NCBI GenBank assembly: GCA_934646835.1
Contig: CAKUES010000001.1
Span: 42,090-106,089 of the forward strand
Reading direction: 5' to 3'
Origin: an uncultured Coriobacteriales bacterium
GTDB taxonomy: Bacteria > Actinomycetota > Coriobacteriia > Coriobacteriales > QAMH01
DNA: 64,000 nucleotides
Within the stretch, counting starts at the first letter, position 1. Each line of letters starts with the position of its first letter. Below are positions 3,813-49,581 of the stretch, piece after piece. Both the position numbers and the translations under genes were made by a program. The notes beneath the pieces were generated by a model. The model searched no databases. It was not told the origin of the DNA and saw only the letters and a list, made by a program, of their open reading frames with translations.

Positions 3813-4931
3813 CTACAGGTCCCTCTCCTCTGCGATGCGTTCGAAGAAGTACTCTCTGAATCCCGGCAGGCAGAATTCGAGCAAGCCCTTTGACCGCTCT
3901 TGGATAACACCATGCTGCAACAGACGTTTCTTGTATCTCGAAACATGACCGCTTCTCTTATCTAATCTGGCGGCCAAATCTGTCTGCTTCGTCGCTCCTG
4001 AGTCTTGCGTCATTGCCCAAAGGAAGGATTTGTCGGCTTCGCTCAGCTCAAACCACACCGCTTCGTAGACTCTTTCATCCAGCTCCTTGCGCGCGATGCT
4101 TGCTGCGGCGTTAACGCTTAAGATATCCACGATGTTTGAATCCTCGGCCATGCGCCAGGTGCGATAACCCGCAAGCTGTAACATGAAGGGGAAGCCCCCG
4201 ATAGCGTTAATCGCGGCTTCAAGAGCATCGGGCTCGAAGCTTTTGCCGCCGTCGCGCATCGTCCTTACCAGCGCCTCTTCGACTTCGTAATCGCTCAATG
4301 CCTGCAGCTCGTATCGTGCGGCTCTTCGCAGGAATGAAGTTGATTTACCCGAGAGCAGCGACGTTACCGCATACGGAAGACCCGCCATGATGAGGGAGAC
4401 CTTCTTCCCCTCGTCGAGGAAGTGCTGGAAAGCGGCGACGAGTGTCACCATTTCCTCAATATCAGGATTGACCTCGTCAATCGTCACTAGCAGCCCAGTG
4501 TCGCATTCAGCCAAAGCATCCAGAATATCGTCCATCCTTGAACGCCAGTTCGACAGCTCGCAAGGCGAATCCTCCAGCTCAATCGAGATGAGCTCGGCAA
4601 TTCCTGCTCCTTTGATTTTGCGCGAGGGGTTGGTATCCACCAGATGTCGTGCCGCTCGTTGCGTTCTGATAAGGATCTCGTCGAGCATCCCCTCAACGCA
4701 GGTAACGCGAGCCGTAATCCACCCCGAAGACTCGGCTGCGTCGGCAAAATAGGACAGGAGAGCCGTCTTGCCCATACCGCGCGGGCCGACCAAAAGGCTG
4801 ATGATCGCTGGATCGTTGCCTGTGCCGGAAAGAGCTGTCTCCACATCGGCGATGATCCTTTCGCGTCCGGCTATGTGCAAGGGAACCTTGCCGACCACAG
4901 GGGTGAATGGATTGTCGAAATCTATTGCCAT
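3813..4931 (-). CDS. AAA-type ATPase (AAA_16/Arch_ATPase-like) with C-terminal winged-helix-like domain
   Basis: Walker A GPRGMGKT, Walker B-like LLVTIDEV, and a C-terminal segment KQTDLAARLDKRSGHVSRYKKRLLQHGVI. GAGGAGG lies upstream of the ATG. GC is visibly lower than in the neighbours. Confidence 0.75.
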   Translation of the reverse strand: MAIDFDNPFTPVVGKVPLHIAGRERIIADVETALSGTGNDPAIISLLVGPRGMGKTALLSYFADAAESSGWITARVTCVEGMLDEILIRTQRAARHLVDTNPSRKIKGAGIAELISIELEDSPCELSNWRSRMDDILDALAECDTGLLVTIDEVNPDIEEMVTLVAAFQHFLDEGKKVSLIMAGLPYAVTSLLSGKSTSFLRRAARYELQALSDYEVEEALVRTMRDGGKSFEPDALEAAINAIGGFPFMLQLAGYRTWRMAEDSNIVDILSVNAAASIARKELDERVYEAVWFELSEADKSFLWAMTQDSGATKQTDLAARLDKRSGHVSRYKKRLLQHGVIQERSKGLLEFCLPGFREYFFERIAEERDL

Positions 4932-5316: not shown

Positions 5317-6288
5317 TTACTCCCCGTCGGCGCAGTACGGCACGGCAATGGAGCCGAGGATGCTGTTGACCACGTCTTGAGCGGTGCGTCCCTGAACCTT
5401 GGCCTCGTGGCTCAAGGTGATGCGGTGGCACAGGACACAGGGCGCGAGCGCTTTGACGTCGTCGGGCATGACGTAGCCGCGGCCACGGGACAGCGCGAAG
5501 GCGCGGCTCAGCGCCATGAGCGCAAGGCCGCCGCGCGTCGAGGAGCCCACCTGGATCTCCGGGTTGGAGCGCGTCGCGGTGAGGATTTCCACGATGTAGC
5601 GCGTGACGAGCTGGCTGACGTGGACTTGGGTGGCGATATCGCGCACAGCGAGCACGTCAGACGCGCTGGCCACCGGGCGCACGGCCTTCTTGGCGCTGTC
5701 GCCGAGCTCCAGCACGCGCATCTCCTGCTCGAAGTCCGGATAGCCCATGGACAGCTTGATGAGGAAGCGGTCGAGCTGAGCCTCGGGCAACGGGTAGGTG
5801 CCAAACTGCTCGATGGGGTTTTGCGTGGCGAGCACCATGAAGGGCTCGACGAGCTTGTGCGTGACGCTATCGACGGTGACCTGGCGCTCCTCCATCGCCT
5901 CGAGCAAGGCGGACTGCGTCTTGGCAGAGGCGCGGTTGATCTCGTCGGCCAAGACGAGGTTGCTCATCACGCCGCCAGGCCTGAACTCGAAATCGCGTGT
6001 CTTCTGGTTGAAGATCGAGAAGCCCGCAACGTCGGAGGGCATGACGTCGGGTGTGAACTGGATGCGGTTGAAGCCGCAGTCGACGGACTTGGCCAGCGTC
6101 GAGACAAGCGTGGTCTTGCCGGTGCCGGGCAAATCCTCGAGCAGGACATGGCCCCGGGCGATGAGCGAGAGCACCACAAGCTCGACAGCGCCGTGCTTGC
6201 CCTGGATGACGGTGTCGACGTTGCCGACGATGCGCTCGATGACGGCCCTCGCGGCCTCGACCTGGCTTTGACTGGGCATCTCTGCCAT
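5317..6288 (-). CDS. MoxR-family AAA+ ATPase
   Basis: LLEDLPGTGKT (Walker A) and VLADEINRASAKTQSALLEAMEERQVTVD (Walker B/sensor block), typical of MoxR. Confidence 0.9.
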   Translation of the reverse strand: MAEMPSQSQVEAARAVIERIVGNVDTVIQGKHGAVELVVLSLIARGHVLLEDLPGTGKTTLVSTLAKSVDCGFNRIQFTPDVMPSDVAGFSIFNQKTRDFEFRPGGVMSNLVLADEINRASAKTQSALLEAMEERQVTVDSVTHKLVEPFMVLATQNPIEQFGTYPLPEAQLDRFLIKLSMGYPDFEQEMRVLELGDSAKKAVRPVASASDVLAVRDIATQVHVSQLVTRYIVEILTATRSNPEIQVGSSTRGGLALMALSRAFALSRGRGYVMPDDVKALAPCVLCHRITLSHEAKVQGRTAQDVVNSILGSIAVPYCADGE

Positions 6289-6303
6289 GTTGTTATCCTC
6301 TCT

Positions 6304-7086
6304 CTAGAAAACCGGCGCGCACATGCGCATGGGCTCGTTGTGGCTGTCCATGAACTCGACGATCTTGACGCCCACGCCGTAGGCGGCCCTCATGTTCTTC
6401 TCCGTGATGATCCGCGTCGCTGGGCCAAACTGCATGGGCGCGTCGCGCTGCAGCAAGACGACGTTGGACTTGCACATGAAGGCGTGGTCGGGACTGTGCG
6501 TGGTCATGACGACGGCATAGCCCTTGGCGGCCAGGTCACGTACCTTGGAGATAACGCGCATGGCGTTGCCGTAGTCGAGCGCGGCGGTGGGCTCGTCGAG
6601 CACGAGCAGGCGAGGCTGCTGGCACAGGGCGCGGGCGATCATCACCAGCTGCAGCTCGCCGCCGGAGATGTCCGTGTAGACCTTGTCGCGCAGGTGGTAG
6701 ACGCCCATGTCGTTCATGGCGTTTTCTGCGATGTTGTAATCCTCCGCACTCGGCTGGCCGGCAAGTCCCATTTTGTTGACGCGGCCGAGCAACACGACGT
6801 CTTTAACCTGGTATGGAAAAGGCGGCGTGTGGGCCTGGCTCACGTAGGCCATGGTGTCTGCAAGGCGCTTGGGGCTCCATTTGGAGATATCGTCGCCGTC
6901 GACGGTGACCTTCCCGCCTTGGAGCGGGATTAAGCCGAGTATCGACTTGAACAGGGTCGACTTGCCTACGCCGTTGGGGCCGAGCATGCAGCAGACCTCG
7001 CCGCTCTCAACGCTGAAGTTCACGTAGCGCTGGACGGGCTTGCCCTTCTCGTAGCCGCAGGTCGCGTCTAAAACCTCGAGTTTCAT
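6304..7086 (-). CDS. ABC transporter ATP-binding protein (FepC/FecE/BtuD-like)
   Basis: Walker A GPNGVGKST, signature ISGGELQ, Walker B LLVLDEPTAALD. AAGGAAAGG lies before the ATG. Confidence 0.9.
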   Translation of the reverse strand: MKLEVLDATCGYEKGKPVQRYVNFSVESGEVCCMLGPNGVGKSTLFKSILGLIPLQGGKVTVDGDDISKWSPKRLADTMAYVSQAHTPPFPYQVKDVVLLGRVNKMGLAGQPSAEDYNIAENAMNDMGVYHLRDKVYTDISGGELQLVMIARALCQQPRLLVLDEPTAALDYGNAMRVISKVRDLAAKGYAVVMTTHSPDHAFMCKSNVVLLQRDAPMQFGPATRIITEKNMRAAYGVGVKIVEFMDSHNEPMRMCAPVF

Positions 7087-7098
7087 CGTTGCCTTTCC

Positions 7099-7839
7099 TT
7101 AGCAGCAGCCGCAAGAGCAGCTGGAGCCACTGTCCTTAGCGCCCGCGTCGACCGCAGCGGCTTTGGGCTCCGCGGGGCGAGCGGTGCTCTGGTCGTACTT
7201 CTCGCGCAGGAAGCCGCGGATGTTGTCCGGCATAACGTACTCGTCGTATGCGGGCTTCTCGTGCGTGAAGACGACCTCGAGGAGGCGCTTGACGATATAG
7301 GCCACGGGCGGGACCTCGTAGAGCTTGCCGTTGAAGTCGAACTGGCGGCAGAAGACATCGTAGCTGGACAGGGTGCGGCAGCAGTCGCATTCGTTCTCGA
7401 TGACCTCGGGACAGATGTCGACGCCGTTGACGCGCACGGTGGGGCTGCTCAAGAACTCGAAGCGGTCTGCCAGGTACTCGTTCTCGATCTCCACCTTGTT
7501 CATGACGATGTTGTAGCCGGCCATGTCCATGATGGGGCGCACCTGCTCGACGGCGGCAGCCACGCGCGCATCTGTACCCTGGCAACGGTCGCAAACGCTC
7601 TGGTCGAGGTAGAGGTAGTCGACGATGACGACCTCCTTGCGGCCGAGGTTGGGGTCGTCTTGCGTGGCATCGGGGTCACAGCAGCCGTTGGACTCGCCGC
7701 TGCCGCAGCAGCAGTCGGAGTCATCACCGCAGCAGCAGCTCTCCTTGGCCTCGGAGTGCTTCGAGCCACCACAGCAGCAGCTCTCCTCCTTCTCCTTCTT
7801 GGTCTCACCAGAGCAGCAGCAGTCGTTATTCTTCGTCAT
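7099..7839 (-). CDS. poly-cysteine protein with DUF2703-like (thioredoxin-like) core
   Basis: The N-terminus reads CCCSG..CCCGG..CCCGDDSDCCCGSGESNGCC and the C-terminus CSCGCC. The core VVIVDYLYLDQSVCDRCQGT...SSPTVRVNGVDI resembles DUF2703 as I recall it. The ATG at 7839 (GGGAGG 8 nt upstream) is preferred over the TTG at 7845. Confidence 0.7.
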   Translation of the reverse strand: MTKNNDCCCSGETKKEKEESCCCGGSKHSEAKESCCCGDDSDCCCGSGESNGCCDPDATQDDPNLGRKEVVIVDYLYLDQSVCDRCQGTDARVAAAVEQVRPIMDMAGYNIVMNKVEIENEYLADRFEFLSSPTVRVNGVDICPEVIENECDCCRTLSSYDVFCRQFDFNGKLYEVPPVAYIVKRLLEVVFTHEKPAYDEYVMPDNIRGFLREKYDQSTARPAEPKAAAVDAGAKDSGSSCSCGCC

Positions 7840-7939
7840 ACTCAATACCTCCCATTTTCAGACGGGCATGTGCCCGTCACCACAAACAGTGCAAGTAGCC
7901 AACAGGGCCAGCATGTTGCCAGGCCCTTGCAAGGCAGAA

Positions 7940-9286
7940 TCACAGCGTCAGATGTCGTATTCGATAGCCAAACAGCCCGAGCTCCTTGCGCGCTTTTCGA
8001 TAGAAGCTCTCGTACAGGTAATCCATGGCCTTGAGATCCTCATCAGCCACAGGCACATCGCCGTACTGCTGCGCAACGAACAAGGCCGTCAGGTGATCGA
8101 AGGAACCCGCCTCCTGCGCCCCCGCAAAGGGATAGATGCGCTCCCTGAACTTGTTGGCGTAGTCGACCGGAGTCATAGCATCTGGCTTGGCAAAGCCCAG
8201 CTTGGCAAAACGCGACAAGAAGAATCGATACAACGTGATGACGTAAGTCCCGTTGCCCTTGTTGCGCATGCGCTGCCAGCGGACCTTCCTAACCACAAAG
8301 CGAGGGAGCACGAGCAAGACCACGACCAGCACGAAGACGATCAGGATAAGAAGCGGCCAAGGAATGCTCGAGTTGAGCGCGACCTTCCGCGCACCTTCGA
8401 CAAGGTCGGCAAGGTCGATGTCCGAGTACTTGCCGGAGAGGTAGTTCTCCTTCTTCTGCGGCGCGCTTGTCCCGCTCTCGTCATGTTGCTCTGAGCTCTC
8501 GTCGATCTTCTTGTCAGTCGTCGTCTTGGGATCAAGGCTCTCGTCGACATTCGAGCTGGTCACGACGTTGTCCGTGTCGGGCGACAGCGAAACCACTCCC
8601 TTGACAGGCTGCTCCTCGTAAGCGAGGTAGATCGTCTGCAGCTTGATCGTCGCATGGGGCGGATTGAGCGGCATGACGATACCGATCACAATAACGGAGG
8701 CAACGAGGCACAAGGCGAGCGGCAAGCCGACGACAGAAGCCACAAGCTTTGCCGGCAGCTTCCCGCCTGCAGCAGCGGCGGGCTGAGCTCCAAACCTCAA
8801 AGCAAGCAGCGCCAAGGCCGCAACGGCGAAGACGAAAGTGCTGACGAGCATGTTGGCGGTGTACATCAGCTGGATGTAACTGCAGGCGAACAAGCCCAAG
8901 GCAAACAACGCGACGCAGCCGAGGTGCTTGCGTGAGCAAGCGAACACCACGGCGTTCACGATGCCGACAAGCGCGCAGAAGACGAAGAGGTTCTCCGGCA
9001 CGTCTTCAACGGGGTTGACCTGCGGGGAGACGGCAACCGCCGCAGCGCACGATGCGACAAGCAGCGCTGCGAATGCCGCGCGCGAGCCCCATCGCCAGGA
9101 GGGGCGTGCAGCCCCCACACCCAAAACCACCTGAGCGACAGAGCAGGCCGCAAGGTTGAGGGCAAGGTTGTGGTGGATAGCGTCGCTGACGTTGAAACCG
9201 CCTTGGACAATGAGTTCAAGCGAGCATGCAGCGACGACGCACAGCAGCAGCTCGAACCCAAGCAACAGCTTCGTACCCTTACTCAT
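7940..9286 (-). CDS. multi-pass membrane protein with DUF4129-like C-terminal domain
   Basis: About 7 hydrophobic helices, an acidic/Ser-rich linker, one further TM helix, then MTPVDYANKFRERIYPF...YLYESFYRKAR. This resembles the DUF4129 tail of transglutaminase-type partners of MoxR/DUF58. The ATG at 9286 overlaps the DUF58 stop (ATGAGTAA). Confidence 0.55.
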   Translation of the reverse strand: MSKGTKLLLGFELLLCVVAACSLELIVQGGFNVSDAIHHNLALNLAACSVAQVVLGVGAARPSWRWGSRAAFAALLVASCAAAVAVSPQVNPVEDVPENLFVFCALVGIVNAVVFACSRKHLGCVALFALGLFACSYIQLMYTANMLVSTFVFAVAALALLALRFGAQPAAAAGGKLPAKLVASVVGLPLALCLVASVIVIGIVMPLNPPHATIKLQTIYLAYEEQPVKGVVSLSPDTDNVVTSSNVDESLDPKTTTDKKIDESSEQHDESGTSAPQKKENYLSGKYSDIDLADLVEGARKVALNSSIPWPLLILIVFVLVVVLLVLPRFVVRKVRWQRMRNKGNGTYVITLYRFFLSRFAKLGFAKPDAMTPVDYANKFRERIYPFAGAQEAGSFDHLTALFVAQQYGDVPVADEDLKAMDYLYESFYRKARKELGLFGYRIRHLTL

Positions 9287-10577
9287 GAGTGCCGCCTCCC
9301 ACCATGTCGGCGACGTCACTCACCAGCAGGCAAACTGCACCGGCGGCATCGAGGTCGGCCATGAGGTTGCGGTTCTCCTTGATAAAGCGCATACGCTCAC
9401 TGTGCGGGGACACGAGGATGACGGTTACAGCGATATTGCGCGCGCACAGGCTGAGAATCGCCGCAACGAGCTTGGGAGTCAATGTACTCGTGCACAAAAC
9501 GGCGTTGTCGACGCCGGAGGAGATGCCACACTCGCTAAGCAACAGCCCCACCGCGTCTTGCTCCGACACGGCATCGGACAGCAGCGGCAGCTCGCCTACC
9601 AGCTCCCCGATAGAAGCGCTATCGGGGAGCTCCTCGTACTTGATCATGCGGCCCGTCTTCCCGGTAAAACACAACTCGGTCTCGAGCTTGCGGCTCTGCG
9701 AGAGCTTGAAGGAGGTGATTGCGGACTCGACCAGGACATCGCGCGCTTCCATGAGCAGTTCGTGGCTGAGCGCCAGTGCATGGAAGTCGATGATGACGGC
9801 GGTCTTGGTGTTCACATTGGTCTCGAACAGGCGCGTCTGCAGGTTCTCCGTGCGCGCGGAAAGCTTCCAATGAACGGACTTCATCGGGTCGCCGAACTCG
9901 TAATCGCGCACCCCGGCATAGTCGACGTCGTCGGAGATGACAGAGCGCACGGGCATGAGGCTCTTGCGCATGGCAAGCTGCGAGAACTCGAGGGCAGATG
10001 CCTCACAGGGAAGCGGCGTGGCCACGATCGACGCATGGTCCACGCAGGCGACCTCTACGTGCAGCAGGCCAAACGGGTCGAAGAGCAAGATACCCTTCAA
10101 GCCGATCTGATAGCTTCCGATATGCGCGCAAGCCACCGAGGCACTGATGCGGGCATCCTCGTTGTTGTCGATCGCGATAACGGCCTCCTCGCTTTGCTCG
10201 ACATCCCCATAGGGATTAGCGACGAATACCTGCGGCAGCGCCTTGAAGACGGGCAGGGGCGAGCGGTTACAGACCGCCAGCGGCAGCTTGACGGACTCGG
10301 TGCGCGTGCAGGACTCTTCCTCGAAGTCAGAGCGTACCAACAGTCCCTTCTTGACTGTGCACAGATACATCCAGCTTGTCGCAAGCAGCAACAAGTAGGT
10401 GAGCAGCGGGATATAGGCGATGGGATGGGTCACGAAGACTGCGGGAAGCGCGAGCACGACGAACACGACAACGCAGACAATGATCTGCCTGAACGCAAGC
10501 GCGCGAACGCGCTGCTCATAGGCGCCGGCAGCCTTCTTGGGATTGAGCTTATCCAAGATACGCAGCACGCCTACCAC
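9279..10577 (-). CDS. DUF58 domain protein (MoxR partner)
   Basis: Hallmark motif DYAGVRDYEFGDPMKSVHWKLSARTENLQTRLFE and two N-terminal TM helices. The start is GTG 10577 (overlapping the upstream TAG as GTGGTAG) or GTG 10568. The track's longer N-terminus overlaps the permease gene. Confidence 0.8.
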   Translation of the reverse strand: MVGVLRILDKLNPKKAAGAYEQRVRALAFRQIIVCVVVFVVLALPAVFVTHPIAYIPLLTYLLLLATSWMYLCTVKKGLLVRSDFEEESCTRTESVKLPLAVCNRSPLPVFKALPQVFVANPYGDVEQSEEAVIAIDNNEDARISASVACAHIGSYQIGLKGILLFDPFGLLHVEVACVDHASIVATPLPCEASALEFSQLAMRKSLMPVRSVISDDVDYAGVRDYEFGDPMKSVHWKLSARTENLQTRLFETNVNTKTAVIIDFHALALSHELLMEARDVLVESAITSFKLSQSRKLETELCFTGKTGRMIKYEELPDSASIGELVGELPLLSDAVSEQDAVGLLLSECGISSGVDNAVLCTSTLTPKLVAAILSLCARNIAVTVILVSPHSERMRFIKENRNLMADLDAAGAVCLLVSDVADMVGGGTHE

Positions 10578-11821
10578 CCCTTTCGGGAGAACGTGGTCGC
10601 CCACACGAAGAGCGGCAAGGTGACAGCGCCCGCAACCACGCCGATAGGCAGGCCAATGCCAGGGAAGGGAATGAGCACTGTAAGGTCGCGGCAGATGAGG
10701 AGCACGATTGTGCCGAGCAAAACATTGCCCCACAACTGGCGCCTGAACTCGCTGCCAAAGAGGTAGCGTGCGAGGAAGGGCACGACGAGCGCGAACGAGG
10801 AAGCGGACCCGACGAAGACCTGGGCCGTCAGGATCATGATGGAGCCGGCGATGATGGAGAGGACCCTGAGAGCCGCCGGGTGCCCACCCATGACGCGGAT
10901 CTCACCATCGCTGAAGGAGAGCAGGTTGAGGCGATAGCGCATGATCGCAACGGGCACGAAGGCCACCAAGACGGAGCCGATGAGCACAACGTAGGTGATC
11001 GGCTGGTAGTAGATGTCGAGTGCCTCCTGGTACTCGAAGAACTCGATCCAGATGTTGAGCGCGGACAGCTGGTCCATCATGTACTTGACCACCGCACCGA
11101 GGAAGGCGGACATGATCGTGCCGACGACGAGCATGTCGAAGACGCTGATGCTCGTCTTGCGCTTGGTGATGAGCTTGCTCAGCACGAAGACCGCAGCAAG
11201 CGTGACTATGCCGGCGGTGTATCCGTAGACAAAGCGCTGGCTGTGCATGTCGAACGAGATGGCCCCGTAAGTCGCAAAGACGAAGAGCAGGCCAACCTGC
11301 ACGCCATGAGTGACGCCAAGCAGCGACGGCGAGGCGATGGGGTTGCGGAAGACGACCTGGTACAACATGCCAGCGCAGGCAAGCAAAGCACCGCTCGCAA
11401 CTGTAGCGAGCGTTATGCCGGCGCGCTGGACGACCTGCGCATACAGCGGCGCCACATCGACCAGGCTGGTCTTCTCGTCAAAGAGACCCAGCCCAAAGAT
11501 ATTGGAGAGCTGCCAAAGCGACCAATTCCACAAGTTGGATGCGACGTCAATGGGATTATAGAAGCTCACATAACCAGAACCCGAGCCCGTGAGGCTGAAG
11601 CACATCGAGACAAGGGTCAGCGCGACGGCGATGCAGGCCATCACTGCGATCTTGAGTCGATAGACCTTGCGGTCGGCCTTGAGGTTGGCATCAGACTGCC
11701 CGCGGGTAATGTCGCCTGCACCCTCTGCAACACGCAGGGCGAAGGCATCGTCGCGGAGAAACTCCGGGAGCTGGTAGCCCTCCTTGAAACGCGGGGCACC
11801 TGCGACCTTATTTCCAAGCAT
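10571..11821 (-). CDS. FecCD-family ABC permease
   Basis: Polytopic protein with the FecCD-type block LNLLSFSDGEIRVMGGHPAALRV. The ATG at 11821 (MLGNKV...) overlaps the upstream gene end by 14 nt. Confidence 0.85.
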   Translation of the reverse strand: MLGNKVAGAPRFKEGYQLPEFLRDDAFALRVAEGAGDITRGQSDANLKADRKVYRLKIAVMACIAVALTLVSMCFSLTGSGSGYVSFYNPIDVASNLWNWSLWQLSNIFGLGLFDEKTSLVDVAPLYAQVVQRAGITLATVASGALLACAGMLYQVVFRNPIASPSLLGVTHGVQVGLLFVFATYGAISFDMHSQRFVYGYTAGIVTLAAVFVLSKLITKRKTSISVFDMLVVGTIMSAFLGAVVKYMMDQLSALNIWIEFFEYQEALDIYYQPITYVVLIGSVLVAFVPVAIMRYRLNLLSFSDGEIRVMGGHPAALRVLSIIAGSIMILTAQVFVGSASSFALVVPFLARYLFGSEFRRQLWGNVLLGTIVLLICRDLTVLIPFPGIGLPIGVVAGAVTLPLFVWATTFSRKGW

Positions 11822-13025
11822 GGGCACCTCCCCTTCCCCTGAAAGCGACGATGAAGAACACAATGCAGCCGATGAACGTGGCGATGAGGTTGAAACCCTG
11901 GTCCATGTCGATGTTGAGCTGGCTGCCGATAAACAAAACGACCATCACGAAGATTGAGCCGATGACAAGCGACATGGGCATGAGGTAGCGGAAGTTGGGA
12001 CCGACCAGCCGGCGCGCGACATGGGGGCTCACAAAACCGACGAAGGCGATGGGGCCACAGAAGCCGACCACGATGCCCGTCGCCGCCGTGCACAAGACGA
12101 TGGTGCCCGTGCGGAACCTGCCCACATCCATGCCCGAAGAGCGCGCGATGTCGTCGCTCAAGGAGAGCAGGTTGAGCCGCGTGCGCAGCACCATAAGACA
12201 TGCGAGCAAGATGACGAGCGGGATGAGGAAGACCAACAGGTCCCTGAAGGTGATGAACGCGGTGAAGGGGACGGCTTGGGCGTTTTCTACGAGGTCCGCT
12301 CGAACAGCATCGCCGGTCACCTCGAGGAAATAGCGGAAGGTGTTCGCCACCGTGGCCAAGACGAGCGTGAAGACCTGGCCCACGACGATGAGAACGACGT
12401 TTCCAAGGGCCCCGTTGCCCACAGCGCGCGAGACGAAGAGCGCCGTCGCGGCGACGATCAGGCCTCCTGCGATGGCGCAGATGGCGGCGCCGTAGACCGC
12501 CCAAGCAAACTCAAGTGGATTCATCCCCTGCAGGGAGTCCATAACCTGCGAGGCAGAGACCACGGAGGAACCCCAGATGTCCGGCATGAGGCACAGGTAG
12601 TACAGCGTCGAGCCAAAGAGACAGCCGCTGATGATGCCCAGCGTGGAAGGCGATGCAAGCGGGTTCTTGAAGGTACCCTGGTAGACGGCGCCGCACACGC
12701 CGAGCGCACCGCCGGCGACAAACGCGGCGATGTAGCGCATGACCGTGGCCTTCTGCATGCCGCCGGCTCCCGAGCCGCTCAAGACAGCAGCGGTGTCGGC
12801 GACGTTGGACCCCAATTGGTCGAGAAACTCCGCCATCGTGGACTTGTGGCCGATCTCCGTAAGAAGACCGGACGGCAAGACAATCGCGCCGGCCAAGATG
12901 GCAAGCGCGATCACGAGCAAGATCACGATGCGACGGGCCTTCGCAGAATCCTTGCCCAAGGCGGCGAGCTGCGGCTTGGGCGCCTCAACCTCTGTCTCTA
13001 TGTGCAGGCTGCTCTTGTGTTCCAT
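11808..13025 (-). CDS. FecCD-family ABC permease
   Basis: Polytopic protein with the block LNLLSLSDDIARSSGMDVGRFR. Its ATG overlaps the TAA of the binding-protein gene (TAATG). Confidence 0.85.
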   Translation of the reverse strand: MEHKSSLHIETEVEAPKPQLAALGKDSAKARRIVILLVIALAILAGAIVLPSGLLTEIGHKSTMAEFLDQLGSNVADTAAVLSGSGAGGMQKATVMRYIAAFVAGGALGVCGAVYQGTFKNPLASPSTLGIISGCLFGSTLYYLCLMPDIWGSSVVSASQVMDSLQGMNPLEFAWAVYGAAICAIAGGLIVAATALFVSRAVGNGALGNVVLIVVGQVFTLVLATVANTFRYFLEVTGDAVRADLVENAQAVPFTAFITFRDLLVFLIPLVILLACLMVLRTRLNLLSLSDDIARSSGMDVGRFRTGTIVLCTAATGIVVGFCGPIAFVGFVSPHVARRLVGPNFRYLMPMSLVIGSIFVMVVLFIGSQLNIDMDQGFNLIATFIGCIVFFIVAFRGRGGAHAWK

Positions 13026-14953
13026 TACTCCTTGGAGCCTTCCAGAATCTTATCGACCTCGCTTGCGCTCAGGTCATAGCGGTAAAACGTCTTGTAGAAG
13101 TCCTTGACCTCCGTTTTGACAGAGCCCTTCCAAGAGCTTTTGTACTCGTCGATGCTCGCAATCCAAGCCGACTCCAAGCAAGACTCAGCCGAGCCCTGCG
13201 TCCAATCGCTAAACAGACCACTCGGATTGACGACGACATTCTTGCCAAGGTCCGTCCCAGGGTGGATGGCTGCGTACACATGGGTTCCGTTGAACTCGAA
13301 GCCCGCGCGCTCGCTGCCCGACTCGATGGGGTCGTAAACGCAGTACGGACCCTTCTTCGCGCTGCCGGAGACAAAGGCTGCCTTCATCTTCTTGCTGCCC
13401 ACGATGACCTTGGGGAACTTCTTCGAGCCAAAGCCGTTCTTGCCGAGCTGGTCTGCCTTGGTGCTCGACGTGGTAAGGGGCGTCATGTCAAAGCGCTTGT
13501 TGCCGATCGACAGCACACGCTTCTTGATAGAGCTCGTCGACCAGCTGATCTTGGACATGTCGTAGACGCTCGTGCTGAACTGCCAGACAGGGATGAACAG
13601 GCCGTCGTTGCCCTTGCTCTCATCCATGGCGGCGCCATTGTTGATGACGCCGGCTACGCCCATGTAGAAAGAGACCGGGCTCGACCTGTAGCCGACGGTC
13701 GAGAGCCCCAGTCCGGACTGAGACGTCGTAACGGAGCCGCTCATGGCGCCGTCTCCGCTGTAGCTGGCCTTGTAGTCCCAATCGTCGACAAGCAGCGTCC
13801 ACTTGTCCGAATTGTACATGCCGTAACGGTTCTTGCCGCTTGCGTCCGCATCGTAGTAGACCTTGTCGTGCGAGCCGTACCCGTTCGACCCCATGATGTC
13901 CTTGAGAAGGGCGTCGTGATACTTCACGTACTCTTCGGCGCGCTTCTTGGACTCGCCACCCGTGGCAGAGTCGAGCATGGTGCCGATAGTGTTCACCGCG
14001 GCTTTGATGCGCGTGTCAGAGCTCAGATCCGGAACAACCGTGACGGAGATCTTCGCGTCAGCGAGCTTTTGCTGCTGCTTTTTGGAGAAGTAGCCGCTGT
14101 CGTCGACAAGGACGGTATCGGGCTTGACGCTCACGATGGCGTCGACCTTGGCCTCGGCGGAGAAGTCCCCGTCATCGCTCCAGCCCGTCTTGATCTTGGA
14201 GGCTCCCTCGTCGGAGAAGACGTTCGAGAACTCGCTGCCAAGCAGCTCTGCGTCAGCGGCGACCAGAGGCGACTTGTCGCTTTGCCCGCCGAGCATCTGA
14301 ACGATGACAGCGGTCTGCCCGCAGGCGGCAACGCTACCTACCGAGGGGATGTCCGCATCCTCACCGGTGGTGTCATACACCTTGACCTTGCCCTTCTTGT
14401 CGGTGTCGGTCTTGCTGCTGTCGCCGTCGCCCTTGTTCTTGCTGGGCTTCTTGCTGTCGGTCTTGTTGTCCTTCTTCTTGTCGCCCTTGTCCTTGTTGTT
14501 CTTCTTCGAGTTGTCCTTCTTGGACTTGTCAGGGTCTTGCTTCTTGTCCTGGTCGTCCTTTTTGCCCTCTTGGGAGCTCGTGTCGCTCTTCGTGCTCACG
14601 CCCTCGCTCGCCTCCGAGGAAGCGGTCGCCTTCGAGTCGTAGATGAACTTGGACACCGGAAGGTCTGTCTGGGGGTTCTTAGAGCTGTAGACGACATTGA
14701 CCGAGCCCTCCTTGGTTTTGGAGGCGCCCTCGCCCACGACGAAGTCCTTCACATTGGCATCCGGGTCGATTTCTCCGTCAGGAGAGGAGACCTTGACTTT
14801 AGTGGGGTTATCCGTATCAACTTGCTCCGCGTCCTGCGTGTACTTGACCTCCTTGAGGGCATAGCTCGTCTTGCAGCCGGTCAAAGCCGCCGCAGAAGCG
14901 CACGCCACCAAGGAAACGCTGAGAACAAGGCCCATGCTGCGCTGAAGAGACAC
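13025..14953 (-). CDS. lipoprotein, class III (Fe-siderophore/B12-type) substrate-binding protein with long N-terminal extension
   Basis: Lipobox LTGC at residues 24-27, a K/D-rich linker, and the binding-domain-like block VAACGQTAVIVQMLGG...VKPDTVLVDDSGYF...ISVTVVPD. The GTG start overlaps the upstream TAG by 1 nt. Confidence 0.75.
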   Translation of the reverse strand: MSLQRSMGLVLSVSLVACASAAALTGCKTSYALKEVKYTQDAEQVDTDNPTKVKVSSPDGEIDPDANVKDFVVGEGASKTKEGSVNVVYSSKNPQTDLPVSKFIYDSKATASSEASEGVSTKSDTSSQEGKKDDQDKKQDPDKSKKDNSKKNNKDKGDKKKDNKTDSKKPSKNKGDGDSSKTDTDKKGKVKVYDTTGEDADIPSVGSVAACGQTAVIVQMLGGQSDKSPLVAADAELLGSEFSNVFSDEGASKIKTGWSDDGDFSAEAKVDAIVSVKPDTVLVDDSGYFSKKQQQKLADAKISVTVVPDLSSDTRIKAAVNTIGTMLDSATGGESKKRAEEYVKYHDALLKDIMGSNGYGSHDKVYYDADASGKNRYGMYNSDKWTLLVDDWDYKASYSGDGAMSGSVTTSQSGLGLSTVGYRSSPVSFYMGVAGVINNGAAMDESKGNDGLFIPVWQFSTSVYDMSKISWSTSSIKKRVLSIGNKRFDMTPLTTSSTKADQLGKNGFGSKKFPKVIVGSKKMKAAFVSGSAKKGPYCVYDPIESGSERAGFEFNGTHVYAAIHPGTDLGKNVVVNPSGLFSDWTQGSAESCLESAWIASIDEYKSSWKGSVKTEVKDFYKTFYRYDLSASEVDKILEGSKE

Positions 14954-16059
14954 TAGTTGCCCTCCGTCGCCTCGGCACTGCCCTTGCTTGCGCCTGAGTC
15001 AGCCTGGTTGTCGCCATACGACGAGGTGTCGACGTCGACGTCATAGCTCAGGCCGCTGGGCATGTCGTTGACGCTGAGGTTCGCGCTGATCTGGCTGGAG
15101 AGCCACGATGAGCACGAGATATCCCAGACGCGCGACTGCGTGCGCGTGGAGAGTATCTTCTTGAGGGTGGACGGGAGCTTGGAGACGTCGATGTCATCGG
15201 CCTTGGACGGGAAGGTGTAGCTGTCTGCAACGTAGATAACCTCATAGGCGTTGACATCGGAGTCAGAGGCCACGTCTGCGCTCACCTCGCCAGTTTTGAG
15301 TTTGGCGAGCTCGGTCTGCATGGTCGAGGTGGTCTCAGGGTCGACATCCCAGCCGTAATCCTCGTAGACGATCGTCTCTCCGTCAGCCTGCTTCTTTGCA
15401 GCGTCAAAACCAGCGGTAGCAGCGGAAGCTGTCTTTATCTTATTGAGTGCGGCCTGCAGTTTGGGGTAGTTGGCGCTGTAGAGCACCTCGAAGTGCTTCG
15501 TCGTGCTACCGAGCATGTTCTCGTGGATATAGCTCGCGATGTCTTGGTCAGTCGGGTCCGTCTTGTCAACGACGGCCTCATAGACTTGGTTGGCAAGGAC
15601 CTCCTTAGCCGTGCGGTCCCTGAGCTCGTCTTCTGTCATCTGATACTTCTCGAGCGTGGCCTCCCAGCTCTCGTCGTCAGTAGCCGCCATGGTCTCTTTG
15701 AGCGCGTCGATCTTCTTGTCGACCGCGTCTTGGTCGAGCTCGATTCCCCTCTCCTCGGCAACCTGCTCGATGACGATGTCACCTGCCAGCTCCACGATGG
15801 TCGTTTGGCGCAGGGCCTCAGGGGTGTTCTCGTTTTTCTCGAGATAACTCTTCCAAGCGTCTTGGTCGGTATAGGACATGACAGAGCGGAAGCTGTCGAT
15901 GTAGTCCGTGACCTGCTGCTCGGTAATCTCCTGCCCCATGATTGTCGCCGCGACACCATCCTTGGCGCTCTTGTCACAAGCGGTAATCACGGCGCAGGAA
16001 AGCACCAGGGCCGCGCTCAGCACACAGGCTTGTACCTTATGCAAAAAAGACTTCTTCAT
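14953..16059 (-). CDS. PrsA/SurA-like lipoprotein (degenerate parvulin-type PPIase domain)
   Basis: Signal MKKSFLHKVQACVLSAALVLSCAVITAC, a SurA-N-like helical part, and a C-terminal part HFEVLYS...DYGWDV...LKTGEVSADV..YEVIYV that resembles a parvulin fold. The start is taken at the MKK (16059). Confidence 0.55.
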   Translation of the reverse strand: MKKSFLHKVQACVLSAALVLSCAVITACDKSAKDGVAATIMGQEITEQQVTDYIDSFRSVMSYTDQDAWKSYLEKNENTPEALRQTTIVELAGDIVIEQVAEERGIELDQDAVDKKIDALKETMAATDDESWEATLEKYQMTEDELRDRTAKEVLANQVYEAVVDKTDPTDQDIASYIHENMLGSTTKHFEVLYSANYPKLQAALNKIKTASAATAGFDAAKKQADGETIVYEDYGWDVDPETTSTMQTELAKLKTGEVSADVASDSDVNAYEVIYVADSYTFPSKADDIDVSKLPSTLKKILSTRTQSRVWDISCSSWLSSQISANLSVNDMPSGLSYDVDVDTSSYGDNQADSGASKGSAEATEGN

Positions 16060-16163
16060 TGCTCGGTATTCCCCATCCTCTAACACCGAGATTGGGGTCG
16101 GAGCGCAGACTCCAACCCCAATCGTCTAAAACAAATGCCCCTGTTCTAAGGAACTAGGAGATT

Positions 16164-18176
16164 TTACTTCACCTTGACCTTGATGGTCTTGGAGGCAGTG
16201 GCTGCCTGGTAGGTCTTGCTCTTGACAGCAGAAGCGGTGACCTTGACCTTGTAGGTGCCGCTCTTGACGCCCTTGGCGACCTTGAGCTTGCCGGACTTGG
16301 AGACAGTGATCTTCTTGTTGCCGGAGACCTTCTTGAAGCTGAGCTTGGTGCTGGCCTTGGCCTTGATAGCGGCGGTCTTACCAGCCTTGACGCTCAGGGT
16401 CTTAGTGGAGATGGTGACCTTCTGGCTGATGGTGCCGATCCTGCTGGAGGGCTCGAGGTAGCCGAGGCCCTTTGCCTTGAGCTTGGAGGCGTTGGCGTTC
16501 CAGTAGGCGATACCGGCGTCGTACTGCTGCTCGATCTTCTTGGAGGTAGCGGCGTTGTAGCCCTTGATGTCGCTCATCTTGACACCAGAGGTGAGGGACA
16601 GGTCCTGGGCGAGGATCTGGACCATCTTGGAGACCTGGCTGGTCTTGATGTGAGCGATGTTGTCGAGGAACCAACCGTACTGCTCGAGCTGGTTCATGAC
16701 CTCGGGGTAGACGAAGCCGTTGATGATGCCGTGCAGGGCCATGGAGTCAACAGAGCCGCCGTCGCAGTTGGAGGCGTTCTCCTGCATGCAGGAGAGGATC
16801 TCCTTCTTGGCAAGCTTGGTGTGGCCGGCTGCCTTCAGGGCGTCCTTGATGGTCTCGACCTTGGTCTTGGTGACCTGCTGGGGGCCGTAGAACTGGTTCT
16901 TGAAGTGACCCAGGGAGATGTCGCCGTAGTGACGGGAGCTATTCTCGCCGTTGTCGCCAGCCTTGCCGAGGTTGTTGTCGCCCTTCTGGACGCCGGTATA
17001 GATGTCGTCCTTTTCGCTGAAGTTGTACTTCATGTTGTCGGCGTCGACCATGATGATGAAGTCGGCCTTGGCCAGCTCGTCGACGCTGCACTCGTAGGTG
17101 ACGCCGGGCTTGGACTCTGCGGGAAGCTCGACGCCGGCCTTGGCGGCCAGGACGTTGGCGAGATTGTAGCAGGTGGCGTTAAGCGGCTCAAGGATATGGC
17201 CGGAAGACTCGCCAGATTTGGTGGGGTCGAGGTTGGCCTGCAGGGTGAACCTTGCATCCTTGCCCTCGCCGGTGATGCTCTTCACGTAGGCGACGGTCTT
17301 CTTCTTGACAGTGCCGTCGGCGATCTTGGAGAGGACGTAGAGGTCGGAGCCACGCGTCATCTTCTCGTACTTCTGGGCGGTGGTCATCGCGGCGTCGTAG
17401 CCGTAGCGCAGTGCGACCTTGGCCTGTTGGGAGGTGCCGTCCCAAGAGTAATCGTAGGCCTTCTGAGCAGCCTCTGCTGCGTTGTAAACGGCATCGATGA
17501 AGCCAGCGGTCTTGACTTCCTCGTACTCGCTGATGACGGGCTTGTAGTTCTCGTCGCCGACGTAGGTGTCGGTAGCGGACTTGTAGTACTTGGAGTTGGC
17601 AGCCTTGAAGCCGTTGATGGTCTTGATCTCCTCCGCGAAGGCGTTGGTGTTGCCCTTCTTGGTGACGATGACATCGGGGCGACCGGACAGCGCGATGGAG
17701 GTGCCGTTCTTGAGGCTCTTAGTATCAGCAGTGATGCAGGAGCCGGAATAGCCGTCGAAGATGTAGTTGTACATGTAGTTCTGGACGGCATCTGCAGCGG
17801 CGGTCATGCCCTTGGCCTTGAGGTCCCACTTGTAGAAGAGGTTGGCGACATAAGGATCAGGGTTCTCGTTGGCATCACTGCCGTAGATACCGAACATCGG
17901 GTTGGTGGAGTAGTTCTCAGTGGAGACACCATTGCCAGAGGTAGCGTAGGTCTGGTTGATCTGCTCGCTCAGGCCAACGTACTCGCCGACAACCGCAGAG
18001 CCATGTGCGCCGATAGCGGTCAGGTAGCGCTCGACGCTGCCGTTTTGGGTGCTGCTCTCGGACGTAGGGGCGTTGTAGGTCAAATCAGCCGCAAACGCGG
18101 GAGCAACGCCGGCGAGAACCATTGCCATAGCTGCACCGGTAGCGGTAAAGCCCTTGAGGTACTTTCCAACTCGCAT
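16164..18176 (-). CDS. secreted substrate-binding-like protein with C-terminal Lys-rich Ig-like domain
   Basis: Signal peptide ...VAPAFA/AD and PBP-like segments (GRPDVIVTKKG, ADFIIMVDADN). The last ~90 aa form alternating beta-strand-like K-rich repeats (KVTISTKTLSVKAGKTAAIKAKA...TYKVKVTA). The ATG at 18176 is preferred because AAGGA lies 8 nt upstream. Confidence 0.6.
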   Translation of the reverse strand: MRVGKYLKGFTATGAAMAMVLAGVAPAFAADLTYNAPTSESSTQNGSVERYLTAIGAHGSAVVGEYVGLSEQINQTYATSGNGVSTENYSTNPMFGIYGSDANENPDPYVANLFYKWDLKAKGMTAAADAVQNYMYNYIFDGYSGSCITADTKSLKNGTSIALSGRPDVIVTKKGNTNAFAEEIKTINGFKAANSKYYKSATDTYVGDENYKPVISEYEEVKTAGFIDAVYNAAEAAQKAYDYSWDGTSQQAKVALRYGYDAAMTTAQKYEKMTRGSDLYVLSKIADGTVKKKTVAYVKSITGEGKDARFTLQANLDPTKSGESSGHILEPLNATCYNLANVLAAKAGVELPAESKPGVTYECSVDELAKADFIIMVDADNMKYNFSEKDDIYTGVQKGDNNLGKAGDNGENSSRHYGDISLGHFKNQFYGPQQVTKTKVETIKDALKAAGHTKLAKKEILSCMQENASNCDGGSVDSMALHGIINGFVYPEVMNQLEQYGWFLDNIAHIKTSQVSKMVQILAQDLSLTSGVKMSDIKGYNAATSKKIEQQYDAGIAYWNANASKLKAKGLGYLEPSSRIGTISQKVTISTKTLSVKAGKTAAIKAKASTKLSFKKVSGNKKITVSKSGKLKVAKGVKSGTYKVKVTASAVKSKTYQAATASKTIKVKVK

Positions 18177-18647
18177 GTAATCCATCCTTTCTTGAGGCGC
18201 GCTCTCTTGATTCGCGCCTCCCCTCGCCCCTCCTTAGGAGCGTTTTGCAAATCGCCAGGGCTTGCCTGGCGCGCCGGCCTCCGGTCAAAGCTCTGCTTGA
18301 TGCTCGGCTTTCTCGGATAACAGACGGGTGCCAATAGACACCAACCTGAAAATAAGCTGCAGCGCATCTAGTGTCAATTGCCAATAGTCGCACCTGTCGT
18401 ATATCATTGAGCAATCAAAACCGCACTACATCCGCAGCTACCTGCATTTGGACACGCGCAAGTAGCTGATATATATCTTATAAGTGCTTTAGAGACTTAT
18501 TCTCATTTCGATAATCGTCCACTCGTTATGCAGGGCGAACGGTTAAGGTGGTAGCAAGCAGAGATCGAGGGGCGTCCACCCCATCGAAGATGCCCGCAAT
18601 CCACTTGCACGAGTCAAGGCTGACAAGAAAGAAAGGGGGAGTTTTCC

Positions 18648-18989
18648 ATGAGCGAGAAATGCTGCATTGGCGACGGCAGCCCCACGGAGGAACTCACCTC
18701 GTTTGACGTCAACCCTGCATCCGCAGACCAAATGGCCGCCCTCTTCAAGGCGCTTGGCGACAAGCGCCGCCTCGAGATCATGGAGATCGTCGCCGATGAA
18801 GGCGACGCCTGCGCCTGCGCGCTGCTCGACGAGCTCGAGATCAGCCCCTCCACCCTGTCGCACCACACCCGCATCCTCACCCAAGCCGGCCTGCTCAACT
18901 GCTACCGTAAGGGCAAGTGGGCCCACTACCTCGTCAACGAGTCCGGCGTCGAGGCCGCCTGCGCGCTCTTGGGACGCCTGGCCAAATAG
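18648..18989 (+). CDS. arsR: ArsR/SmtB-family metalloregulator
   Basis: HTH region LGDKRRLEIMEIV...DACACALLDELEISPSTLSHHTRILTQAGLL with a C-x-C in the position of the ELCVCDL site, plus an N-terminal CC. AAGGGGGAG lies before the ATG. Confidence 0.85.
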   Translation: MSEKCCIGDGSPTEELTSFDVNPASADQMAALFKALGDKRRLEIMEIVADEGDACACALLDELEISPSTLSHHTRILTQAGLLNCYRKGKWAHYLVNESGVEAACALLGRLAK

Positions 18990-19007
18990 AGCGTCAAGTA
19001 TCGAACC

Positions 19008-21425: not shown

Positions 21426-21437
21426 GTTTGCACGCCC

Positions 21438-21476
21438 GCTGCAACCAGATGGCGCCGACTCCGTCTGGCGCCTACG
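21438..21476 (+). repeat. family B REP-like hairpin (single copy)
   Basis: gctgcaaccagatGGCGCCgactccgtctGGCGCCtacg. Confidence 0.8.
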
Positions 21477-21527
21477 CTGGCCTGCGACCTGCAGGGGCTG
21501 ACGCGCAAACCCGTAGCGAGTTGCGGC

Positions 21528-21613
21528 GCAGTCAACACTCCCGTCAGGCTGATTTGTTGACCAAGCCATGCTTGGCATGGTCAACAAATCAGCCTGACGG
21601 GAGTGTTGACTGC
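21528..21613. repeat. 86-nt near-perfect hairpin
   Basis: The 36-nt arm gcagtcaacactcccgtcaggctgatttgttgacca (21528-21563) is perfectly complementary to 21578-21613. The inner gcca-tgct-tggc extends the stem. Confidence 0.85.
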
Positions 21614-21672
21614 AGCCAAAACCCCACGAAAACCATATAGGAGCACCACCAATACCAGATTCTGTAAAAAAC

Positions 21673-49573: not shown

Positions 49574-49581
49574 ACCCCCCC

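Follow-up and report, generated by a model that had tools for sequence, protein, structure and literature searches.

Why do the genes of a MoxR-type AAA+ ATPase and its membrane partners lie inside the operon of an ATP-binding cassette (ABC) importer? This question is raised by a stretch of 64,000 nucleotides (nt) from an uncultured Coriobacteriales bacterium (GenBank assembly GCA_934646835.1, contig CAKUES010000001.1, positions 42,090 to 106,089; hereafter, the window), in which ten minus-strand genes, g1 to g10, combine a type II importer with a MoxR/DUF58/DUF4129 triad. Clusters of MoxR, DUF58, and TgpA/DUF4129 genes are widespread. The Bat operons of Bacteroides, Leptospira, and Borrelia, the PFNA cluster of Bifidobacterium, the TgpA locus of Pseudomonas, and Rv1479-1481 of mycobacteria all encode these three kinds of protein (a MoxR with AAA_3, a DUF58 protein of the membrane, and a polytopic TgpA_N/DUF4129 protein), and the functions of these clusters are unknown or loosely defined (PMC8430577, PMC5700661). 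The answer that we favor, with a probability slightly below 0.6, is that the operon and its relatives encode one composite importer for an oxyanion or complex of the molybdenum/tungsten (Mo/W) type, with a membrane-anchored MoxR module. A clade of triads that is fixed to a defined transporter under a cofactor-sensing riboswitch would provide a testable client and a testable phenotype.

Operon structure and the encoded proteins

The ORF translations (ORF, open reading frame) and Pfam matches show that all ten genes are present, with domains largely as described in a first-pass annotation of the same DNA (Table 1); the operon structure is tight and the domain identities of the ten genes are established. 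When measured from start codons preceded by Shine-Dalgarno-like sequences, five junctions overlap by 1-14 nt, as had been noticed before, and the genes may be co-translated. The overlaps are 1 nt at both g2/g3 (TAGTG) and g3/g4 (TAATG), 14 nt at g4/g5, 7 nt at g5/g6 (GTGGTAG), and 8 nt at g6/g7 (ATGAGTAA). The other genes are separated by gaps of about 104 nt (g1-g2), about 100 nt (g7-g8), 12 nt (g8-g9), and 15 nt (g9-g10). A public metagenome gene call places the start of g6 at 10604, which leaves the overall picture unaffected. Two of the gaps contain hairpins on the minus strand: one (ATTGGGGTTGGAG...CTCCGACCCCAAT), in 16060-16163, 3' of g1, is preceded by a T-rich tract, and the other (GACGGGCACATGCCCGTC), in 7840-7939, lies just upstream of the g8 ribosome-binding site. 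They could influence the stoichiometry of g1 or the regulation of the g8-g9-g10 segment.

By hydropathy and positive-inside analysis, the operon encodes three extracytoplasmic, four membrane, and three cytosolic proteins, and no transmembrane (TM) segments are seen in g8, g9, or g10. The transporter part is of the type II class. Both permeases are FecCD proteins, and their matches in the PDB include FhuB, HI1471, HmuU, and BtuC. The closest solved structure of g5 is HI1471/MolB (E = 1.1e-15), the permease of a molybdate/tungstate importer; for g4, HI1471 is second and FhuB is first. The g5 protein would be the heterodimer partner of g4. The ATPase g9 carries Walker A (GPNGVGKST), signature (SGGELQ), and Walker B (LLVLDEPT) motifs, and its best NCBIfam matches, all below the cut-offs, are the ATPases of type II importers for heme, corrinoid, and Fe-dicitrate. 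In Pfam, the lipoprotein g3 matches Peripla_BP_2 below threshold (19.8 bits versus a cut-off of 27.5). However, the profile of its family (A2, 26 sequences) matches the solved class III binding protein 4ovk (E = 4.5e-15), as well as 4pag (E = 2.5e-9), 2etv, and, weakly, MolA/HI_1472, which places g3 among the class III binding proteins. The g3 family is present in 38-41 related loci. The system is not of the ModABC, TupABC, or WtpABC type: its permeases are FecCD rather than BPD_transp_1 proteins, and its binding protein is of class III rather than ModA, TupA, or WtpA.

The two other extracytoplasmic proteins are less conventional. No Pfam match and no PDB sequence match was found for g1. Its AlphaFold2 (AF2) model (predicted local distance difference test score, pLDDT, 82; predicted template modeling score, pTM, 0.84) has an alpha/beta body of two lobes, a 27-residue inter-lobe helix at residues 263-289, and then an immunoglobulin (Ig) domain. 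In Foldseek, the model mainly finds Ig domains, and the single match to the whole body is a weak one, to the siderophore-binding protein HtsA (3eix). This family, S1, is found in about 30 related loci. The idea that g1 and g3 are paralogues was ruled out, as pairwise similarity is undetectable. The label “PrsA-like”, given earlier to g2, holds in part: g2 is a lipoprotein with a SurA-type N-domain, which is all that Pfam detects, and the name is loose because no rotamase domain was found by Pfam. It is a probable extracytoplasmic foldase with homologues among the related loci L001-L004, L018, L021, L023, L026, L028, and L034. The permeases of 17 loci, most of them attributed to Coriobacteriia, are preceded by a protein of about 1,700 amino acids (aa), which usually occupies the position of the lipoprotein binding protein (LBP) and is nearly devoid of Pfam signal (weak Flg_new).

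The triad consists of g10, g6, and g7. An AAA_3 core and an AAA_lid_2 domain identify g10 as a MoxR protein. A Pfam match to bpMoxR prompted the candidate of an anti-phage or conflict system of MoxR and von Willebrand factor A (vWA) proteins, which was ruled out, as AAA_3 matches far better and the partners are transporter genes. The g6 protein has a positively charged N-terminus and an N-terminal TM hairpin, followed by a cytosolic beta-sandwich and an alpha/beta (vWA-like) domain. Its Pfam DUF58 match covers only profile positions 2-46, and the DUF58 signature DYAGVRDYxxGDxxKxxHWKLSAR, which is invariant in 15 homologues, assigns it to this family. The alpha/beta domain is also predicted in the AF2 model (pLDDT 79), for which Foldseek returns matches that are dominated by the beta-sandwich and say little about function. 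This domain has no DxSxS motif of the metal ion-dependent adhesion site (MIDAS); the window protein has D-F-H-A-L at this position and the family consensus is D-F-H-A-P. In g7, seven TM helices precede an acidic loop of about 110 aa on the outside, and an eighth TM helix then leads to a basic DUF4129 domain in the cytosol. Pfam detects no transglutaminase core of the TgpA type, and only the acidic low-complexity loop lies between the TM bundle and DUF4129. According to hydropathy and the AF2 model, the soluble domains of DUF58, the DUF4129 domain, and MoxR share a cytoplasmic placement.

Linkage of the importer and the triad across genomes

Relatives were collected by an alignment-based DUF58 scan with one genome per species, which found 160, and 79 loci were fetched. 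In these loci, the ORFs were taken from stop to stop without a gene caller and the ten window proteins were mapped by phmmer; many of the loci come from metagenome bins whose taxonomic labels are doubtful. At E <= 1e-30, the DUF58 subfamily numbers 342 representatives, out of 16,360 DUF58-like proteins at E <= 1e-3. The window DUF58 protein has few close relatives, and the neighborhoods of the closest ones keep the gene order of the window. FecCD genes lie beside DUF58 in 57 loci, or 55 without redundancy; most of these also have DUF4129, and their ABC-ATPase and MoxR genes usually form an adjacent pair. The hosts are gut and rumen anaerobes (Coriobacteriia, Anaerovoracaceae, Oscillospiraceae, Lachnospiraceae, and other Clostridia), and in some genomes there are four or five paralogues of the locus. 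With its gene set found again in 55 other loci, the arrangement goes far beyond what chance would give. A recent rearrangement in a single strain, which would have undone the earlier proposal that the MoxR/DUF58/DUF4129 set belongs with the importer, is ruled out, as the linkage is kept by these 55 loci in two phyla.

The gene order itself is variable. The commonest order, in 24 loci, begins with the binding protein(s) and continues with the two permease genes (Fa and Fb) as Fa-Fb-ABC-MoxR-DUF58-DUF4129; seven loci have Fa-Fb-DUF58-DUF4129 without local ATPases, three have an order ending in MoxR-ABC, and two have an order beginning with ABC-MoxR. The window order places the membrane subunits (two FecCD, DUF58, and DUF4129) ahead of the two ATPases, with an inserted DUF2703 gene that is specific to the lineage; it is found in the window and in the loci L001 and L002 only (L003 is incomplete). 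In other words, the interleaving is a local permutation confined to the window's own small subclade. The first-pass annotation had put the interleaving in the foreground and listed the poly-Cys protein g8 among the ten genes. The interleaving does not define the architecture, and g8 does not belong to its core: in the commonest order, ABC-MoxR follows directly after the permeases, and the poly-Cys protein is a member of the operon only in the window's subclade. Nevertheless, the linkage persists through at least five gene orders in two phyla, and gene neighborhoods thus indicate that the association between the importer and the triad is old and selected. A rough neighbor-joining tree groups the ABC-linked DUF58 proteins in a single clade, separate from the plain MoxR-DUF58-DUF4129 triads, with an early subclade that contains the window, L001, L003, and L005.

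These observations bear on the view that the triad performs general quality control of envelope or membrane proteins and merely shares an operon with transporter or surface proteins. Such a role has been suggested for MoxR clusters of the Bat, PFNA, and mycobacterial kinds, and transporter-free MoxR-DUF58-DUF4129 triads do exist in related Firmicutes (L062-L082), as do the seven loci with permeases, DUF58, and DUF4129 and neither ABC nor MoxR nearby. Furthermore, the PFNA cluster pairs the same type of triad with a surface FN3 protein (PMC8430577). We nevertheless judge this explanation very improbable, as the DUF58 proteins linked to ABC genes group in a clade apart, the linkage outlives changes of gene order in both phyla, the junctions overlap or nearly do so, and ABC and MoxR move as a pair. 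The triad of the window also differs from the Bat, PFNA, TgpA, and Rv1479-1481 clusters in being fixed to an ABC importer, in the missing transglutaminase core of g7, in the degenerate MIDAS, and in standing, among the relatives, under a riboswitch for the Mo/W cofactor. In the loci L007, L014, L018, L023, L029, and L059 (and L026), genes for a binding protein, two FecCD permeases, DUF58, and DUF4129 are present, and neither of the two ATPases, ABC and MoxR, is encoded close by. The absence of local ATPases from such loci suggests that ABC and MoxR can be shared in trans among paralogous membrane modules.

No description of a FecCD importer with MoxR/DUF58/DUF4129 was found in the literature, in line with the earlier statement that no such system was known, although most subscription journals lay outside the search, so that absence is unproven. 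The combination of importer and MoxR is probably an undescribed metal-uptake machine.

Molybdenum, tungsten, and the proposed machine

What, then, is transported? About 0.95 Mb of loci were scanned with Rfam, in which the riboswitch family RF01055, for the molybdenum or tungsten cofactor (Moco/Tuco), has a gathering score of 36. Seven RF01055 aptamers were found in six Firmicutes loci with scores of 40-75.5 bits, all directly upstream of genes for S1, LBP, or methyltransferases, and the S1 gene is often the first gene after the riboswitch. Genes for Mo/W transport, cofactor synthesis, and cofactor use are known to be under the control of Moco riboswitches (PMC2408646). An alignment of the riboswitches with the Escherichia coli moaA leader (MAFFT/RNAalifold), made for P3-based typing as Moco or Tuco, resolved the 3' helix alone. 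The scan revealed no cobalamin riboswitch, nor one for any other cofactor, in the operon leaders, and the remaining Rfam matches are tRNAs and one glycine riboswitch in L012, about 6 kb downstream of the operon. The first of the two riboswitches of L006 precedes a gene for an S-adenosylmethionine (SAM) methyltransferase, whose best NCBIfam match is CpaM-like and below threshold; the riboswitch places this unexplained enzyme in the Mo/W regulon. Similar methyltransferases are encoded in L019, L020, L032, and L067.

The neighboring genes point in the same direction. Of the 57 ABC-linked loci, 12 encode MoeA within the flanks that were fetched, compared with one of the 25 triad-only loci; in most of the 12, its gene is a direct neighbor with the same orientation. 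When 148 proximal accessory ORFs were sorted by Pfam family, MoeA came out most often, followed by SAM methyltransferases and LysR regulators, and heme, cobalamin, and siderophore families are absent from the 25 most frequent families. DUF364/DUF4213 lies beside MoeA in L037 and L041, and XdhC_C directly follows DUF4129 in L045. DUF364 has been tied to molybdate/tungstate transporters (PMC2954201; bioRxiv 10.1101/2024.03.05.583561). The Firmicutes relatives thus belong to a Mo/W-cofactor regulon, as shown by their leader riboswitches and by the MoeA, DUF364, and XdhC genes nearby, and the link with metals that had been suspected from the window gains support from these relatives. Most simply, given its regulation and neighborhood, the family would be a Mo/W acquisition system.

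We propose the following machine. The capture parts would be the S1 protein with its Ig tail and the class III lipoprotein binding protein, accompanied by the SurA-like foldase; S1 and LBP would capture cargo of the Mo/W type (molybdate, tungstate, or their sulfidic or chelated forms) and dock on a membrane module of four proteins, made up of the two FecCD permeases, the membrane-anchored DUF58 protein, and the polytopic DUF4129 protein. Of the pair of cytoplasmic ATPases, the ABC nucleotide-binding subunit (NBD) would power import as a dimer (FecCD2-NBD2), and MoxR would dock at the membrane as a hexamer via the cytosolic domains of DUF58 and DUF4129. The use of ATP by MoxR might then remodel the transporter or the cargo complex and so free the metal or pass it on to acceptors in the cytoplasm, which may be MoeA in the relatives and the poly-Cys DUF2703 protein in the window. 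The latter, a cytosolic protein with a thioredoxin fold, would be a fourth part, present in this lineage only. The role of MoxR would be analogous to that of the MoxR-family/vWA pairs that assemble metal centers (CoxD/E/F, NorQ/D, and CobS/T).

Several known systems resemble parts of this proposal. MolBC-A of Haemophilus influenzae (HI1470/HI1471/HI1472) likewise combines a permease of the FecCD type with an ABC ATPase and a binding protein of class III, its permease and binding protein are among the matches of g4, g5, and the g3 family described above, and its class of cargo fits the context of the relatives. However, its permease is homodimeric and its binding protein small, it lacks MoxR, DUF58, DUF4129, a second secreted binding protein, and a foldase, and we know of no association of MolBC-A with a Moco riboswitch. 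CoxD/CoxE/CoxF, NorQ/NorD, and CobS/CobT share with the triad a MoxR-family AAA+ motor and a vWA-like partner that act on a metal site. CoxDEF acts on a molybdenum center and includes an XdhC-like protein, which parallels the XdhC_C domain after DUF4129 in L045. On the other hand, these systems mature a specific enzyme without any transporter, and their vWA partners are soluble, with an intact MIDAS.

BtuCD-F, HmuUV-T, FhuCDB, and the Isd relays of Gram-positive bacteria belong to the same transporter class and have the same binding-protein fold, and in Isd, as here, surface capture proteins stand upstream of the lipoprotein binding protein. It could therefore be argued that the operon encodes a conventional type II importer of a bulky metal chelate or cofactor (siderophore, heme, corrinoid, or a Moco/pterin precursor), with MoxR/DUF58 as a chelatase or dechelatase motor. 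Such compounds are the usual cargo of FecCD permeases with class III binding proteins; FhuB leads the solved matches of g4, and HtsA is the sole whole-body match of S1; the surface capture proteins (Ig, SLH, LRR, and giant) and the several paralogues per genome resemble Isd-like relays; and g10 weakly matches the AAA+ modules of BchD/ChlD and cobaltochelatase in NCBIfam. Because MoeA, XdhC, and DUF364 handle pterin-type molecules, a cargo for Moco or pterin salvage would also fit the riboswitch. These fold matches are weak, however, none of the known importers of this group carries a MoxR triad, and the absence of cobalamin riboswitches from the scanned loci and of heme, cobalamin, and siderophore genes from the commonest neighbors leaves a corrinoid, heme, or siderophore importer unsupported. 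We regard the bulky-chelate explanation as quite unlikely.

The Mo/W importer that we favor must itself face several objections. The window locus has no RF01055 match at the gathering score and no Rfam element at E <= 10 in 15900-19100, and no MoeA is encoded in the 64-kb window. No RF01055 riboswitch was found in the scanned Coriobacteriia loci, many of which have their 5' ends outside the fetched flanks. Only about one quarter of the loci have a Mo-related neighbor. A simple oxyanion would not be expected to require large binding proteins, giant proteins as long as about 1,700 aa at the surface, or multiple paralogous loci in one genome, and a bulky or complexed cargo fits these features better. 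The missing DxSxS motif makes a classic metal-dependent vWA contact by g6 doubtful, and the suggested link between MoxR/DUF58/DUF4129 and the transporter rests on gene neighborhood, riboswitch, and homology.

Eggerthellaceae and many Clostridia rely on dozens of Mo/W enzymes in the metabolism of drugs and polyphenols in the gut and in respiration, and to our knowledge, little is known of how gut anaerobes acquire Mo/W in a sulfidic and competitive habitat. The family is a candidate for a new Mo/W supply route in these organisms. If it is a Mo/W importer, it would provide a new entry for the annotation of metal homeostasis and a marker for Mo/W regulons.

The arsenic-related setting of the window operon

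The window differs from the Firmicutes relatives in its surroundings, and this begins with g8. This protein has a thioredoxin fold of the DUF2703 type with a CxxC motif and a subthreshold NCBIfam match to the “DF family (seleno)protein”. Its 58 homologues all share the CxxC thioredoxin-like core, and nearly all have CC or CCC(C) runs at one or both termini; one distant homologue (P0096) is fused to ArsD (PF06953). In the sister loci, the counterpart of g8 is fused to an ArsM-like methyltransferase (MT-DUF2703) that is 40-44% identical to two ArsM-like proteins of the window. ArsD is an arsenic metallochaperone that passes As(III) to the transport ATPase ArsA, and g8, with its thioredoxin fold, its clusters of vicinal cysteines, and its gene directly before that of a transport ATPase, resembles it. 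However, DUF2703 is the sole Pfam match of g8, which has no ArsD match (PF06953) despite its many CC/CCC runs, and its presumed partner is an importer ATPase instead of the efflux ATPase ArsA. DUF2703 also occurs in ars clusters of Rhodococcus (PMC6514093).

Across the divergent promoter region from g1 lies an ArsR/SmtB-type regulator gene, which encodes an HTH_5 winged helix with conserved cysteines. In the sister cluster L003, an arsR gene stands directly before MT-DUF2703; its product shares 55% identity with the window protein and keeps the CC and CAC motifs. The regulator thus stays linked to the subclade although its position has changed, which lends indirect support to the earlier idea of control by ArsR. 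The window protein is a candidate regulator of both the ten-gene operon and the operon of an ArrA-like molybdopterin oxidoreductase that follows it. Promoter-like hexamers in the intervening region lie at 18377-18349 on the minus strand and at 18378-18407 and 18488-18515 on the plus strand; a search there for an ArsR operator found only small palindromes, none of them convincing. The plus-strand genes from 18648 to 23383, which include an ArsS-type radical SAM protein, look like a cytoplasmic metalloid-processing operon.

Stand-alone homologues of g8 in other Coriobacteriia adjoin an ABC importer of the PhnD type (Phosphonate-bd, ABC_tran, and a double BPD_transp_1) in three loci, L084-L086, of which two also encode signal-less ArrA-like enzymes, 46-52% identical to the 805-aa protein of the window. 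This module of importer, DUF2703, and reductase recurs and appears to be uncharacterized. Beside the sister cluster in L001, at 17882-21070, there are genes for a glutamate-cysteine ligase of family 2, GATase_4, and a MIP aquaglyceroporin. MIP channels are a route of entry and exit for arsenite, and these neighbors fit the thiol/metalloid theme of the subclade.

The window subclade has neither the riboswitch nor MoeA and has ArsR and a poly-Cys DUF2703 protein; it therefore may handle a thiophilic oxyanion or metalloid (e.g., arsenic) or supply Mo/W to the neighboring ArrA-like molybdoenzymes. A more specific form of the earlier metal(loid) reading would be that the importer of this locus serves only arsenic, or some other thiophilic metalloid, under ArsR control, with arsenate or an organoarsenical being reduced by the signal-less ArrA-like enzyme, passed to an ArsD-like DUF2703 protein, and delivered to ArsM and ArsS. 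The divergent ArsR and its orthologue in L003, the ArrA-like protein without a twin-arginine translocation (Tat) signal next to it, the ArsS match above its cut-off, an ArsM-like protein with its cysteine motifs, the DUF2703 operons with ArrA-like enzymes elsewhere, the ArsD fusion, the Rhodococcus ars clusters, and the MIP channel and ligase beside L001 would all agree with this route. We still consider a dedicated metalloid importer unlikely, since both ArrA-like and both ArsM-like proteins are well below their NCBIfam cut-offs, DUF2703 and the ars genes are limited to the small subclade whereas the remaining family points to Mo/W, and molybdoenzyme genes are too common in Eggerthellaceae for their adjacency to weigh much. 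We also know of no precedent for the deliberate import of arsenic at high cost.

A bolder combination, which we think somewhat unlikely, would make the triad an obligatory part of a new class of type II Mo/W uptake systems and the window subclade a variant retuned under ArsR, in which cargo of the arsenic type would pass through DUF2703 to the ArrA-like reductase, ArsM, and ArsS. If this were true, “MoxR proper” triads would gain their first concrete client, and the window variant would represent deliberate arsenic assimilation. In any case, the variant hints at an unexplored tie among ABC import, poly-Cys DUF2703 proteins, and ArrA-like cytoplasmic reductases.

Table 1. Positions of the operon genes, their surroundings, and features of related loci (-, minus strand; +, plus strand; scores in bits)
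Feature	Sequence	Position	Strand	Remarks
g1, secreted S1-family protein	window	16164-18185	-	673 aa; signal peptide, binding-protein-like two-lobe body, C-terminal Ig-like domain
g2, lipoprotein with SurA-like N-terminal domain	window	14953-16059	-	SurA_N_3 E = 2.6e-11; lipobox ITAC
g3, substrate-binding lipoprotein, class III, Peripla_BP_2-like	window	13025-14953	-	lipobox LTGC; K/D-rich linker of about 150 aa
g4, permease a	window	11808-13025	-	FecCD E = 1.7e-48
g5, permease b	window	10571-11821	-	FecCD E = 4.1e-34
g6, membrane-anchored DUF58 protein	window	9279-10577	-	DUF58 24.9 vs cut-off 23.4
g7, polytopic DUF4129 protein	window	7940-9286	-	DUF4129 32.4 vs cut-off 24.8, E = 9.8e-8; weak TgpA_N match
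g8, cytosolic poly-Cys protein	window	7099-7839	-	DUF2703 E = 1.2e-24; CCC/CC runs at both termini
g9, importer ABC ATPase (nucleotide-binding subunit)	window	6304-7086	-	ABC_tran E = 2.7e-30
g10, MoxR-type AAA+ ATPase	window	5317-6288	-	AAA_3 E = 5.4e-64; AAA_lid_2 E = 1.1e-22
Divergent promoter region	window	18186-18647		separates g1 and arsR
arsR	window	18648-18989	+	HTH_5 E = 2e-12; N-terminal CC, CAC in DNA-binding helix region
ArrA-like molybdopterin oxidoreductase	window	19008-21425	+	805 aa; no Tat signal; 731 vs ArrA cut-off 1600; next to arsR
ArsS-type radical SAM protein (arsenosugar biosynthesis)	window	22373-23383	+	367 vs cut-off 300
ArsM-like methyltransferase	window	37326-38372	+	cysteine motifs SNCVINL and GECISGA kept
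ArsM-like methyltransferase	window	39668-40606	-	without these cysteine motifs; ends in SSCC
TorD-like chaperone	window	41313-41966	-	
ArrA-like enzyme with Tat signal	window	42676-45267	-	950 vs cut-off 1600
RF01055 aptamers (two)	L006	2615-2736; 3866-3990	operon strand	
RF01055 aptamer	L037	1782-1926	operon strand	71.5
RF01055 aptamer	L048	3025-3199	operon strand	
RF01055 aptamer	L058	148-285	operon strand	75.5
RF01055 aptamer	L059	7048-7179	operon strand	
RF01055 aptamer	L047	17540-17733	- (operon strand)	
DUF2703/PhnD-type importer	L084	4309-11189		
DUF2703/PhnD-type importer	L085	3616-11816		
DUF2703/PhnD-type importer	L086	4241-8744		
Protein of about 1,700 aa	L010	2-5434		also in L013, L025, L027, L033, L038, L040, L043, L050, L052, L061, and others

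Farther from the operon, the window has a varied content. A gene for a STAND-like ATPase (AAA_16/AAA_22; 3813-4931, minus strand) lies about 385 nt downstream of moxR and was not seen in the related loci. The segment 25460-32355 encodes an MFS transporter, an SDR protein, and an 895-aa molybdopterin enzyme that is AhtL-like (pyrogallol hydroxytransferase type); such a content of polyphenol and xenobiotic reductases is typical for Eggerthellaceae. Finally, 47723-51648 encodes DUF5714 and a type I ABC transporter of the NMT1/PhnD-like kind, and the stretch 47723-62854 also includes a beta-eliminating lyase, SbcC/SbcD (56754-61283), and a Ser/Thr kinase (61658-62854).

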